The notes below the pieces were generated by a model. It was not told where the DNA came from. It ran no database searches and worked only from the letters and a program-made list of their open reading frames with translations. Source: a virus (Duplodnaviria; Heunggongvirae; Uroviricota; Caudoviricetes). Taken from it: 64,000 nt of DNA. Positions 38,649-63,767 of the stretch are shown here, in pieces. The position numbers were made by a program, and so were the translations under genes. The DNA lies in the IMG/VR virus record IMGVR_UViG_3300028888_000044, positions 195,539-259,538 of that record; one strand, given 5' to 3'. Within the stretch, counting starts at the first letter, position 1. Each line of letters starts with the position of its first letter.

Positions 38649-38730
38649 CCTTTTTTAACAAAAATTATTTATTAATTGCCTTTTTTTATTTATATAATTG
38701 CATTGAAATTAATTTTAAAAGTTGACTAAT

Positions 38731-39441
38731 ATGGAACTGTTACATCAGACTTACACTAAAATTAACACCTTATACAAGCGTGTACTTGAGGGAGCTAACA
38801 AGGGAAAGATTATCATCGGTGAGTATTCAGATGCTGTTGTGGAGTATCTCAAGGATTGCAAGTGGTTGTGGTACGAGAAGATTGATGGTACTAACTTTGC
38901 TTGCTATTGGGATGGTCACAAGAAGGAATATCACGGAAAGACGGTGAATGCACAAATCAAGCAAGATTGGATTGATGCATTGGACAAAATCTTCACTACA
39001 GAAAAGTTGGCTTCAGTATTCCCAATCAAGTATGACGCAGATGGAAACGAGATTCCTTTCTTGGTTCGCATCTATGGTGAACTTCACGGAAAGGGTATTC
39101 AAGGTGGTATGGGAAAGGCGTATGCCGATGCAGCAAGCACAGACTACATCTTCCGTGTATTTGACATTAATATCGGAGAATGGTGGCTTGAAATGGAATC
39201 TGTAAAGGATTGCGCAGATGCCCTTGGATTGGAAATGTGTCCATTCGTTGGAGAAATGACTGTGGGTGAGGCTGAAGCTATGGTTATCAAGGGTTTCAAG
39301 TCTTATGTGGCTGATTGTCAAGCAGAAGGTCTTGTAGGTAGGCCAAAGTTTGGTCTACGTATGAGGAACGGTGGACGAATTATGGTCAAGATTAAGACTT
39401 GTGACTATCGTCAACTTGGTATTCTTGGTATTACAGAATAA
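38731..39441 (+). CDS. ATP-dependent RNA ligase (Rnl2-like nucleotidyltransferase domain)
   Basis: Motif I EKIDGTN, YGE, VFDI, EGLV, VKIK. Confidence 0.82.
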   Translation: MELLHQTYTKINTLYKRVLEGANKGKIIIGEYSDAVVEYLKDCKWLWYEKIDGTNFACYWDGHKKEYHGKTVNAQIKQDWIDALDKIFTTEKLASVFPIKYDADGNEIPFLVRIYGELHGKGIQGGMGKAYADAASTDYIFRVFDINIGEWWLEMESVKDCADALGLEMCPFVGEMTVGEAEAMVIKGFKSYVADCQAEGLVGRPKFGLRMRNGGRIMVKIKTCDYRQLGILGITE

Positions 39442-48649: not shown

Positions 48650-49950
48650 ATGAATCTATTAGAAGAACTCAAGTGGAGGGGTCTTGTAGCTGAAGACTCT
48701 AGTGTGAGTGGTAATCTCAATCAGTTGTTGAACAAGGAAAAGACCACATTTTATGTTGGAACAGACCCAACTGGTCCTTCTCTCCATATCGGTCATTTGC
48801 TTGCTTTCATTGTGGCACGTCTCTTGCAGAACCACGGACACAAGCCAATTGTATTGGTTGGTGGTGCAACAGCTTCATTGGGAGACCCATCGTTCAAGGC
48901 AGAAGAACGCAAGCTTCTGTCTATGGAAACCATTTTCGAGAATGCCGACCGTATCAAGAAGCAGTTGTCACATCTGATTGACTTCAATTCAACAGAGGAC
49001 AATGCAGCCGTTATGGTAAACAACTACGATTGGATGAAGGATATGACATTCCTTGACTTTATCCGCGACATCGGCAAACTCTTGACAGTCAACTATATGA
49101 CTGCAAAGGAGTCTGTAAAGAGACGTTTGGAGAGACCAGATTGTGGTTTGTCATTTACCGAATTCAGCTATCAGTTGCTTCAAGGTTATGATTTTCTTGT
49201 CTTGAACAAGAAGTATAACTGTAAGCTTCAGATTGGCGGTAGCGACCAATTCGGCAATTCAATGACTGGTGTGGAACTTATCCGCAAGAGTGGTGGCAAT
49301 GCTGAAGAGTGCGGAGTAATGACGTGGCCTCTTGTTACACGAGCTGACGGTACTAAGTTTGGTAAATCTGAGGTGGTAAGAATATTTGGCTTGACCGAGA
49401 AATGACTTCACCATATGAGTTTTATCAGTTCTGGTTGAATCAGTCGGATGATGATGCTGAAAAGTTCATTAAGATGTTCACTCTTCTCGATGTTAAGAGG
49501 ATTGAATCGCTCATTATCGAGCATCACGAAGCACCACATTTGAGAATCTTGCAGAAGACACTTGCCTATGAAGTGACCAAGATGGTTCATTCAGTAGAAG
49601 ATGCTGAATTTGCTGTTAATGCTTCTAATGCATTGTTTGACAAGAACACTACAATTGACACCTTCAAGGGCTTCAATAGGGAAATGCTTCTTGATATTTT
49701 CAAGGGTGTTCCACAATACAACATTCGCAAGTCTGTTGTTGATTCCAAACCGACTTTCGTTGACTTTGCCAATGAAATTACATTTGCAAATAGCAAGGGT
49801 GAGGCGCGAAGGGAAATCAAGAACGGAGCCTACAGTATGAATCTTCGAAAGGTGGCGATTGATGATATGGTCTCTTCAGATGACTTGATTAATGACGAGT
49901 TCATTATTCTCAAGAAGGGAAAGCGTTATTCACTTGTAACAGTGCATTAA
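48650..49950 (+). pseudogene. tyrS: tyrosyl-tRNA synthetase split by a 1-nt deletion at 49372-49373 (or sequencing error)
   Basis: GTDPT..HIGH, QIGGSDQ, KFGKSE; the other frame continues GKNIWLDREMTSPYEFYQFW to the S4 domain. Confidence 0.85.
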
Positions 49951-50026: not shown

Positions 50027-51358
50027 ATGTTAGTATTAAAAGGAAAATATTGTAAGGATTGTATAGTCTTTACTGACAACATTGAGGACGAGGCAATTAA
50101 GACAATTCAGTCCATCTTGGATTGCAAGGCTTTTGATGGTGCAAAGATACGAATTATGCCAGATGTACATCAAGGCAAGGGTATCGTCATTGGGTTCACT
50201 TCTCCAATTGGCGACTACATTTGTCCATCTCACGTAGGGGTGGATATTGGGTGTATGATTGACACGTACATCACTGATGCTGACGTGAACGAGGATGAAT
50301 TTGCTGTTATCGAACATCGAATCAGAAAGGAGATTCCTTTTGGCTTCGATATTTACGACCAAACGCAGATTGACTACAAGCACTTCTATCGTTTTATGAA
50401 CAACGGTCTGAATCGTCTGCGCTCATTGTGGCCAGAAATGATTGACTCTTGCGCATATTGTGACGAAGAGGGTATTACTGACATCTGCCAACGTATTGGT
50501 ATGGATGAGGGCAAGTTCTACAAGTCACTTGGTACGGTGGGCGGTGGGAACCATTTCATTGAAATTGGTGCAACACCAGAAGGTAAGTATGCCTTTACCA
50601 TCCACTGCGGTTCAAGAAACTTCGGTGCTAAGGTATGCCAATATTGGGAGAAAATGGCTATGAAAGGACTGTCCAAAAAGGAAATCAAGGAAATGACTTC
50701 TGAATTCAAGGAAACTTGGCGTGTGTGCGGTCAACCGATGAAAGACTTCAAAGAGGCGCTCAATGTTTATCTTGAAGGACAGAAATCCAAATGCATTAAT
50801 GGTTATTTGAGCGGTGAAAATATGGTTGGATACATTACCGACATGGCAATCGCCCAATTGTATTCGGAATATAACCACTATGTGATTTCCCAAAAGATTG
50901 CGAATATCTTGAACAAACTCAATAAGGCAAAGGTTGTTTCGAGGATTGCTTCTATTCACAACTACATTGACTATCAAGACCACATTATACGAAAAGGTTC
51001 CATTAGGTCTTATGATGGTGAATTGATGGTAATCCCATTCAATATGAGGGATGGTTTGGCAATCTGTATGGGCAAGTCAAATGCAGATTACAACTTTTCT
51101 GCGCCACACGGCTGCGGTAGGTTGATGTCACGTTCAAAGGCTGTATCAACGTTGTCTGTAAACGAATTCGTTGACCAAATGAAGGGTATCTACAGTACGT
51201 CTGTAGGCAAGAACACTATTGATGAGGCTCCTAATGCATACAAGAGCAAGGATGAGATTCTTGAGCTTATCAAGCCTACTTGTGATGTCTTGTATATCAT
51301 CAAACCAGTAATTAACCTTAAAGACAGTTCAAGTTATGCAGAAAGACTTCGAGATTAG
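50027..51358 (+). CDS. rtcB: RtcB RNA ligase (GTP-dependent, 3'-P/2',3'-cP to 5'-OH)
   Basis: MPDVH, GVDIGC, GGGNHFIE, HCGSR, HNY, RKG, SAPHGCGR, DEAP.AYK. Confidence 0.95.
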   Translation: MLVLKGKYCKDCIVFTDNIEDEAIKTIQSILDCKAFDGAKIRIMPDVHQGKGIVIGFTSPIGDYICPSHVGVDIGCMIDTYITDADVNEDEFAVIEHRIRKEIPFGFDIYDQTQIDYKHFYRFMNNGLNRLRSLWPEMIDSCAYCDEEGITDICQRIGMDEGKFYKSLGTVGGGNHFIEIGATPEGKYAFTIHCGSRNFGAKVCQYWEKMAMKGLSKKEIKEMTSEFKETWRVCGQPMKDFKEALNVYLEGQKSKCINGYLSGENMVGYITDMAIAQLYSEYNHYVISQKIANILNKLNKAKVVSRIASIHNYIDYQDHIIRKGSIRSYDGELMVIPFNMRDGLAICMGKSNADYNFSAPHGCGRLMSRSKAVSTLSVNEFVDQMKGIYSTSVGKNTIDEAPNAYKSKDEILELIKPTCDVLYIIKPVINLKDSSSYAERLRD

Positions 51359-62790: not shown

Positions 62791-62973
62791 AAAGCACTGA
62801 ATTCAAAAAATTTTATCACACATCCTAAAAAAATGTGTGATAAAATTGAATTTTTTGATTTTTTAATATATTTATTTTACAAAAATATTTTGTTTTTATT
62901 TTTTTTTTGTATATAATAACATTACAAAATTTATATAGCGGAGTGGAGCAGTTGGTAGCTCGCTAGGCTCATA

Positions 62974-63724
62974 CGGTTTAAAAGCCGAATAACACATTTG
63001 AACTAAAATAAATACTCATAAGTTGGTTCGTTTTGTGATATTATTACTATTTATCTAATAAATGTGTAGTAATGATTACAAAAGAATTGATGGAGGAATG
63101 GATTTTAGAGAAGAATGAAAGCTATTCCACAATTGGTAAAAGACTTGGTATAAGTGATAATGCAGTTAAAAAACGAGCAAGAAAACTTGGTATCAAGTTG
63201 CCACAAAGAAGACAGATAAACGAGAAAGAGTCATTTTCTCATCCGAGAAAAAAATCAGCATCGTTTGTTTTTTCACTTACTGATGAAGCATTTAAAGATG
63301 CTATATTAAACTCAAGCACTTGGGTTGAAATCAGTAAAAAGTTAGGTTATAAATGCAAATGTATGTCACCCCAAACAAAATCACTTATTACTAATAGATG
63401 TTCAATGTTAGGTGTGGAACTACAACTAAAAGTAAAGGATAGTGTAAGTAGTTTATTAAAGGGTAAACTTTTTGCCGATAGAAAAAATTGGCAATCAGCA
63501 AGGACAGCAATTCAAAAAGACGCAAGAAAAGTGTTCTTTAGTAATATAGCCCAACCAAGTTGCATAATTTGTGGTTATTCAAAGCATGTAGAAGTAGCAC
63601 ACAAAAAAGCTGTTTCTGATTTTAGCGATGACACACCAGTTAGTGAAATAAATTCCATTGAAAATCTCATTGCATTATGCCCTAACCATCATTGGGAGTA
63701 TGACAATGGAATATTAAAAATATA
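62974..63724 (+). mobile_element. 751-nt tRNA anticodon-loop insertion/intron carrying an HNH endonuclease gene
   Basis: Lies between the two tRNA halves; ATA is present at both junctions. Confidence 0.85.
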
Positions 63725-63725
63725 A
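63072..63725 (+). CDS. HTH + HNH homing endonuclease
   Basis: HTH IGKRLGISDNAVKKRARKLG; CIICG..VEVAH...NLIALCPNHH. Confidence 0.88.
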   Translation: MITKELMEEWILEKNESYSTIGKRLGISDNAVKKRARKLGIKLPQRRQINEKESFSHPRKKSASFVFSLTDEAFKDAILNSSTWVEISKKLGYKCKCMSPQTKSLITNRCSMLGVELQLKVKDSVSSLLKGKLFADRKNWQSARTAIQKDARKVFFSNIAQPSCIICGYSKHVEVAHKKAVSDFSDDTPVSEINSIENLIALCPNHHWEYDNGILKI

Positions 63726-63767
63726 CCTAGAGGTCGGTGGTTCGAGTCCATCCTCCGCAACGTATTG

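Follow-up and report, generated by a model that had tools for sequence, protein, structure and literature searches.

An HNH-encoding insert that splits the initiator tRNA gene of a ruminant-gut jumbo phage

The split gene and its HNH reading frame

The DNA analysed here is a stretch of 64,000 nucleotides (the window) from a complete phage genome, G000, of 387,538 bp with a terminal repeat and 34% GC. The sequencing runs that contain the locus are recorded as sheep, bovine or unspecified gut samples, and the source is a jumbo phage of the ruminant gut. Within the window, an initiator-type tRNA-Met gene lies in two halves around an insert of 751 nt that encodes an HNH protein. The features discussed below, including two ligase genes that serve only as context of the insert, are given by window position.

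38722 to 39441, plus strand: ATP-dependent ligase, PF09414 (profile match)
50027 to 51358, plus strand: RtcB RNA ligase (profile match)
62937 to 62970, plus strand: 5' half of an initiator-type tRNA-Met, A1 to C34 (sequence, ARAGORN)
62971 to 63721, plus strand: insert of 751 nt, register C34/A35 (ARAGORN, homologue comparison)
62974 to 62987, plus strand: hairpin 1, starting 4 nt past C34; compensatory and G-U substitutions occur among relatives
62999 to 63034, plus strand: helix 2, formed by an inverted repeat around a ~20-nt loop, with a run of T after it
63032 to 63083, plus strand: long hairpin in which the start codon of the HNH gene is predicted to be buried
63072 to 63725, plus strand: reading frame of 217 aa, with a helix-turn-helix at the N terminus and a zinc-binding HNH nuclease domain at the C terminus
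63663 to 63687, plus strand: stretch of the reading frame that keeps rare codons in split members (codon comparison)
63722 to 63760, plus strand: 3' tRNA half, covering A35 to A73, with no encoded CCA (sequence, ARAGORN)

Run at its default threshold with introns allowed, ARAGORN reports a tRNA-Met(CAT) interrupted by an intron of 751 nt, and its detection of the tRNA joined in silico persists at 119% of that threshold. Initiator tRNAs are distinguished by a CAU anticodon, a 1:72 mismatch, a purine 11:pyrimidine 24 pair and G-C pairs in the anticodon stem. The sequence of the joined tRNA has the CAU anticodon, an A1-A72 mismatch, A11-U24 and two of the three anticodon-stem G-C pairs, and we take the 1:72 mismatch together with purine 11:pyrimidine 24 to mark it as initiator type. 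The arrangement described in the earlier note, two intact tRNA-Met halves around a 751-nt insert with an HNH reading frame, is borne out by sequence and ARAGORN, as is the overlap of the TAA of this frame with exon 2: the stop codon is U36-A37-A38 of the 3' half, and it lies in exon 2 in 22 of the 23 split members of the family described below.

Misassembly, which the earlier note had named as grounds for discarding the split, is excluded because a DNA contig from run X1 covers the locus without differences, RNA contigs from other studies (X9 and X17) span the 5' junction, a relative ~93-96% identical (L219) spans the 3' junction, and 22 other loci have the same layout; the X1 contig does not count as independent support, since it is possibly the source of the record. 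An intact tRNA-fMet gene elsewhere in the genome, which would have pointed to a simple disruption, is absent from G000, since its two other CAT tRNAs lack the initiator hallmark set. The complete genomes G003 and G004 likewise yielded no intact gene of initiator type (with G000, 0/3 complete genomes); many relatives retain a backup initiator gene. A tblastn search of G000 for a second copy of the element returned only the unrelated HNH gene of a tRNA-Leu intron, and a model of the junction region gave one weak extra match over G000 (E=0.12). Among at least 124 stretches matching a joined-junction pattern there was no insert-free allele of the G000 phage, the closest among the matches listed being 9 mismatches away with unrelated flanks. 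The protein of the upstream neighbour gene is without a viral relative. Low-scoring ARAGORN split candidates (Gly, Lys and Gln), situated in coding or unrelated DNA, were dropped.

The HNH identity assigned earlier to the 217-aa protein is supported by a Pfam HNH_2 match better than the cut-off (E=1.6e-8), alongside a Pfam HTH match and PHROG HNH matches. Its structure model (pLDDT 87, pTM 0.51), confident for each domain, resembles helix-turn-helix proteins and DNA-cutting HNH enzymes with middling Z scores of 5-6, and a sequence search of the PDB gave a weak match to TagI only. The HNH gene is under purifying selection: dN/dS is 0.09-0.27 in 9/9 pairs, and the reading frame is unbroken in 21/23 split members. 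One member, L131, has a premature HNH stop, yet its tRNA halves are perfect. With an HNH nuclease domain and a DNA-binding domain, the reading frame likely fits a conserved free-standing homing endonuclease.

Several other genes for translation and tRNA were observed. Positions 38722-59977 of the window hold genes for RNA ligase, DnaK/DnaJ, IF3, a sigma factor, RtcB, an RlaP-type nucleotidyltransferase and a phosphoesterase, by predicted gene content a translation and RNA-repair gene cluster. Within it, tyrosyl-tRNA synthetase is present as two abutting reading frames (48650-49402 and 49402-49950), both matching PF00579. A 177-nt RNA at G000 269583-269759 (in L400) has tRNA-like or tmRNA-like ends and is read by ARAGORN as a tRNA-Leu with a 102-nt intron, and the minus strand at G000 342099-342283 has a tandem pair of similar tRNA-like genes whose anticodon loops are odd. 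Among the other loci, L148 (1514-1714) and L200 (~1305-1420) have tRNA-Lys-like genes with short anticodon-loop inserts that recall the tRNA introns of Lak phages; the L148 insert is a nested tRNA-like piece, the L200 insert a pair of small hairpins.

Relatives of the element and the position of the junction

Viral, metagenome and genome collections were searched for homologues, giving lists of 38, 80, 80 and 66 loci, the metagenome list being the best 80 of 532 and the second viral list the best 80 of 189; 202 loci, counting the window and the top 3 of the 66 genome loci, were examined, of which 106 were distinct. A script placed 30 of these 106 in a class with an intact Met-type loop directly downstream of the HNH gene, 18 in a split class, 15 in a class with the 3' half only and 43 in none of these. 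Inspection by eye moved L126, L131, L183, L184 and L187 from the 3'-half-only class to the split class, giving 23 split members with the window included, while L211, with indels and a stem mismatch, was set aside. The related loci with an interrupted tRNA that the earlier note had proposed looking for were thereby found: 22 other viral and metagenome loci carry the element at the site used in the window, and there are five partial matches among GenBank phages.

Other relatives meet the tRNA differently. By eye, 11 of the 104 rows in the tree have decayed halves; L204, L217 and L332 have a 5' tRNA remnant upstream and an intact copy downstream, and the decayed loci L160/L161, L186, L330 and L331 keep only the acceptor stem and T-arm. 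Judged by these layouts, insertion of the element is destructive in relatives, and tRNA-replacing relatives also exist. In a quick tree the split rows cluster, with 7 state changes against 20 after shuffling, 2 of them forced by well-supported branches; the split state may have a single origin, which the tree neither establishes nor rejects. No ORF-less member was found with narrow patterns in the viral collection (0/2 and 0/120 pattern matches); four of the 120 matches lie in a tRNA context, and all four are HNH members.

Three further observations concern single loci. L282 (1378-1451) has an initiator-like tRNA beside an HNH gene with base 37 of the anticodon loop changed, possibly an immune variant. 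In L011 and L073, other nuclease-like reading frames (GIY-YIG-like and HNH-like by eye) adjoin intact initiator tRNA genes. In L219 (1-460) the first 198 bases are unmatched to G000, the HNH gene is shortened and the T-stem has one mismatch, reflecting decay or misassembly.

The exact position of the split is masked in G000 by ATA at both junctions (62971-62973 and 63722-63724). The four registers listed in the earlier note, 37/38 among them, are indeed equivalent in this genome, but the homologues exclude 37/38 if the product stays a Met tRNA. The three bases after C34 are ATA in 19/23 members, TTA in 3/23 and ACA in 1/23, and the 3' side starts with ATAA; invariance of the ATAA and of the 5' loop bases is partly built in, because the script selected on both. 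Only the register C34/A35 gives a CAU anticodon in 23/23 members, and we placed the junction there for this reason. The 37/38 register gives CUU in L125, L173 and L180 and CAC in L126, and a canonical 37/38 tRNA intron was excluded by these non-Met anticodons in 4/23 members.

The same four members bear on an improbable reading in which the tRNA stays unligated and is nevertheless functional in two pieces, its cloverleaf distracting anticodon nucleases of the host or framing RNA processing, and selection maintaining the halves for that role. Pairing of the stems and retention of the D and T arms would agree with such a role, as would the several decayed relatives reduced to an acceptor stem and T-arm, and split yet functional proteins are described for phage endonuclease insertions in the accessible part of the literature source (PMC2988022). 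Decoding by unligated halves is unlikely, however, because there is no anticodon loop without ligation and the 5' half alone reads CUU or CAC in 4/23 members.

Comparison of alleles points to movement of the insert. The common 11-mer of the anticodon arm is present in 16/20 joined split genes (three near-copies dropped) and in 3/26 intact genes beside an HNH gene, a contrast whose Fisher p of 3e-6 is overstated as the rows are related. This is the pattern expected if the enzyme targets the site and the adjoining intact genes are immune variants, and it would indirectly indicate a carrier allele without a target that other alleles have. The inserts of L198 and L201 are 98.4% identical and their upstream flanks 98%, and the two loci differ at pair 27:43, in the T-stem and over the entire downstream flank, the lone exon-1 difference exactly compensating the exon-2 change at 27:43. 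L170 and L171 also have inserts 98.4% identical, and differ at a D-stem pair and upstream. Because near-identical inserts sit between different tRNA alleles, the tRNA halves must often be exchanged; on another reading, the L198/L201 difference may be a compensatory change that arose in the split state. Such exon swaps would fit gene conversion driven by cleavage of an empty allele. Mobility of the insert, as proposed earlier, is very likely on the strength of the exon-swap pairs, the 11-mer contrast and the selection on the HNH gene.

Known intron classes and evidence at the RNA level

The conclusion of the earlier note that the insert is not a group I, group II or BHB intron extends to the whole family, the features of these classes being absent in 23/23 members. 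The terminal G of group I introns is missing, all four registers ending in T or A in 23/23 members. Group I core (P7) motifs, fitted to two control tRNA-Leu introns, are both present in 2/2 controls and occur together in 0/23 inserts, with a single motif in one insert, L184, and the non-coding part of the insert amounts to about 100 bases. No register begins with the group II GUGYG in 23/23 members, a loose domain V pattern matches only L129/L130, and the reading frame of the insert is HTH-HNH, not the reverse transcriptase of group II introns. The 4-bp central helix of the BHB motif reaches at most 2/4 pairs in the window and at most 3/4 in any member or register, and EndA (PF01974) was not found in the phage genome G000 at E<=1. 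A stop codon can arise by circularisation in archaeal introns; inspection by eye for such a stop found no constant place. Judged by eye, the 5' region matches neither a hammerhead nor a kink-turn nor an HDV-like motif, and an internal guide sequence at the end of the reading frame was rejected, the codons concerned being also common in non-split relatives.

An Rfam scan of the insert gave no match, including RF00028, group II, HDV-like and hammerhead families. It also misses the evident group I intron of the same genome, and for that reason its silence is not usable as evidence against a further reading, which we consider very improbable: a group I intron, either degenerate or trans-spliced, or a small ribozyme that cleaves itself (HDV-like/theta or hammerhead) and is assisted by a ligase. 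The intron that Rfam misses, one of the two controls and located in L164 (G000 344678-345543, minus strand), is a 781-nt group I intron that splits a tRNA-Leu(UAA) at 34/35, the very position of the insert; it too starts with a short hairpin and carries an HNH gene (164 aa, unrelated to that of the insert), and it has the terminal G and the core motifs, while the usual U-G pair at its 5' splice site is not obvious. Theta ribozymes, moreover, adjoin gut-phage tRNAs according to the available portion of a recent report (10.1101/2023.06.13.544163). A hidden ribozyme is nonetheless difficult to reconcile with the missing terminal G, the 0/23 score for paired core motifs and the scarcity of non-coding bases, and the candidate HDV-type catalytic C is a U in the window and in L177 (2/13 rows in a comparison by eye).

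The tRNA halves and the 5' end of the insert bear on a rival that we hold tentatively, at somewhat less than even confidence, namely that the insert is an intron of an undescribed kind. An endoribonuclease of phage or host would cut after C34 and before A35, guided by the anticodon stem and hairpin 1, and an RNA ligase would seal the halves, either host or phage RtcB or an ATP-dependent ligase with end healing; the HNH protein would give mobility only, and would be translated from unspliced or internally started RNA. In keeping with splicing, the anticodon stems are fully paired across the insert in 19/20 lineages with 11 different stems, against 17% of random chimeras, a count partly built in by the script, which required >=4/5 pairs for 18 of the 23 members, and by the setting aside of L211. 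The joined tRNAs also score as high as intact genes, the ARAGORN threshold survived having a median of 118.5 for joined genes (n=22, leaving out L183, which is cut off), 110 for intact genes beside an HNH gene (n=30) and 113 for intact genes from the pattern scan (n=111).

Hairpin 1 lies at a fixed distance from C34 and is 94% paired in 13 aligned members, one pair being A-U in 8 and G-C in 5 of the 13, with G-U at others; seven further members have a second architecture that keeps its position. A model of the junction region, run against 84 other sources, matched only split members, L211 and L174 clearly and L183 and L189 among five weak matches. These features of hairpin 1 favour an intron, as do the exact compensation at 27:43 in L198 and L201 despite 98% identity of their upstream flanks, the variability of the triplet following C34, the absence of a backup copy from 3/3 complete genomes and the unclassified tRNA introns of Lak phages, as far as the accessible text on these describes them (10.1101/356790). 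Against splicing stand the variation of bases at both junctions and the want of ORF-less members, and precise homing accounts for intact halves without it.

Further features of the insert may serve expression of the HNH gene or act at the nucleic-acid level. Helix 2, whose 3' arm is absent in L174, may be terminator-like or an operator, and TATTTAT at 63048-63054, inside the long hairpin, may be promoter-like. Near the end of the reading frame, rare codons are more frequent in split than in non-split members (CTC 13/19 vs 2/35; TGC 15/19 vs 8/35), an excess that may reflect constraint on the nucleic acid and may partly be shared descent. Long-range pairing between the insert ends was not seen in a consensus fold of 18 sequences.

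The RNA data consist of assembled contigs from five RNA runs. Neither the spliced junction nor the insert circle that the earlier note had suggested looking for appears in the contigs of these five runs, a weak test as it draws on contigs only; four RNA runs at the locus have no joint of any kind (4/4), and in a wider RNA comparison none of the 15 joints shown, of 23, is at the insert site. The absent junction is not a refutation of splicing, because a 74-nt product is easily missed in contig data. Contigs cover the insert at window positions 62974-63686 in X4, without differences, 62945-63716 in X17, 62997-63688 in X19 and 62947-63534 in X9. Contigs in X9 and X17 and, for a related element, in X18 run from exon 1 into the insert without a break, and so either RNA unspliced at the 5' junction exists or there is DNA in the library. 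All RNA contigs stop short of exon 2, at 63716, 63688, 63686 and 63534, which hints weakly at cleavage of the 3' junction or at 3' decay. Contig depth, which is not valid as an expression measure, is 19-66 over the insert and 1-10 upstream (X4, X9 and X17). Elsewhere in the genome, a structured RNA of ~367 nt in L163 (4518-4884; G000 ~261017-261385) lies directly behind a tRNA-Arg(UCU), with a long terminal stem, group I-like motifs by eye and no Rfam family; a contig in X4 joins its end to its start, as in a circle, and a contig in X9 skips 379 nt there. For the insert, the lack of a junction or circle in five runs, though this other RNA circle is seen in X4, and the attachment of exon 1 in three runs weigh against an intron.

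The two joining enzymes put forward in the earlier note, RtcB (50027) and the ATP-dependent ligase (38722, PF09414), were correctly identified, but phage RtcB does not hold up as a needed partner: it is found in 0/5 records of other carriers, two of which are complete. All 5/5 have a PF09414 match, 4 of them over the cut-off, and this argues for an intron, although these proteins may be DNA ligases. The genome-wide search for EndA yielded no candidate endonuclease, which counts against one. Altogether, we regard as plausible yet rather doubtful a widespread class of mobile introns in phage initiator tRNAs that would belong to neither the self-splicing nor the BHB kind, an enzyme excising them from mid-anticodon and a ligase sealing the halves in bacterial cells.

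Homing as an explanation, and known counterparts

The reading we prefer, giving it about an even chance, is that the insert is an unspliced, selfish homing-endonuclease cassette and that the tRNA halves stay fresh through repeated precise homing. The cassette, which lies inside the initiator anticodon between C34 and A35, would probably never be spliced out; since the split gene would then give no working tRNA, the phage would rely on the initiator of its host. In co-infecting phage the HNH enzyme would cut intact initiator genes at the anticodon arm, and repair would copy the cassette in with very short co-conversion, so that each invasion would bring fresh, matching tRNA halves without selection on the split tRNA. 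Lying within its own target, the cassette would make its carrier immune, and the cloverleaf of the halves and the 5' hairpins could process, stabilise or regulate the nuclease RNA. Such a cassette needs unusually short tracts, because known homing usually co-converts the flanks, according to the part of the source at hand (PMC2988022).

A homing cassette can do without an additional enzyme. It agrees with the relatives in which the tRNA is destroyed or replaced, with the tie of the family to initiator tRNA genes, with a nuclease kept active, with a reading frame that ends in exon 2, with the RNA data, with the lack of ORF-less members and with the absence of EndA from G000 and of RtcB from the other carriers, and on these grounds we see it as evenly poised between right and wrong. 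Against it speak the paired stems, joined scores no lower than those of intact genes, the covariation in hairpin 1 and the lack of a backup gene in 3/3 complete genomes, as well as the premature HNH stop beside perfect halves in L131 and, as a weak hint, the exon 2 left uncovered by RNA.

Two intron systems invite comparison. The cyanobacterial tRNA-fMet group I intron with I-Ssp6803I is reportedly self-splicing, with a terminal G and a PD-(D/E)XK enzyme, and is said to lie after U33. As there, an initiator anticodon loop is broken by an endonuclease-bearing element of similar size; unlike that intron, the insert is without a core or terminal G, has an HNH gene and sits after C34. Archaeal BHB introns with homing endonucleases depend on EndA and RtcB; the insert resembles them in being filled by a reading frame without a ribozyme core and in lying in a genome that encodes RtcB, and differs in having no BHB motif, no EndA and a site at 34/35, with RtcB missing from the other carriers.

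Closer parallels come from free-standing phage homing endonucleases that split a gene, namely mobE in nrdA of Aeh1 and mobA in gene 60 of T4, as presented in the accessible text of the source (PMC2988022). Like these, the insert places an HNH gene, unaccompanied by a self-splicing intron, in a region critical for function, and has a start codon predicted to be buried in a hairpin with a promoter-like motif nearby. Unlike them, the insert has an RNA gene as its target, which it splits inside the anticodon, and it recurs at one site in 23 loci; moreover, two protein halves, as in the mobE case, can reassemble, whereas a tRNA needs a covalent loop. T4 SegB, an endonuclease of the tRNA cluster (PMC2330249; PMC2988022, both as far as available), is likewise an endonuclease gene tied to phage tRNA genes, and most HNH relatives of the insert adjoin an intact Met tRNA; SegB, however, is a GIY-YIG enzyme encoded between tRNA genes, whereas the split clade lies inside one. 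By analogy, the element works like the free-standing, gene-splitting phage endonucleases and belongs with tRNA-cluster endonucleases such as SegB.

Lak megaphages are described as having enigmatic, unclassified tRNA introns of unknown mechanism (10.1101/356790, available portion), and the insert is similarly an unclassified insert in a tRNA gene of a large gut phage; the Lak introns, unlike it, are in Tyr, Thr, Phe and Gly tRNAs and include a nested tRNA, and that portion of the text mentions neither a nuclease reading frame nor an initiator tRNA. The accessible parts of the Jug phage and zeta crAss papers and of PMC8421152 report group I introns or HNH genes and not the split-initiator layout. 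We found no published description of a phage initiator tRNA split by an HNH gene in a literature search that covered subscription journals thinly.

If the insert is indeed a homing cassette, a single homing-endonuclease lineage would treat its tRNA target in several ways, lying beside it, overlapping it, replacing it or sitting inside it, and intact-looking split tRNAs need not be introns. The question is now directly testable, with the junction fixed at C34/A35, a defined 5' hairpin, 23 natural variants and a group I tRNA intron as a control within the same genome. Should the insert prove instead to be an intron, tRNA splicing would have one more route, this one in bacteria, and the unexplained tRNA introns found in large gut phages could be approached through it.
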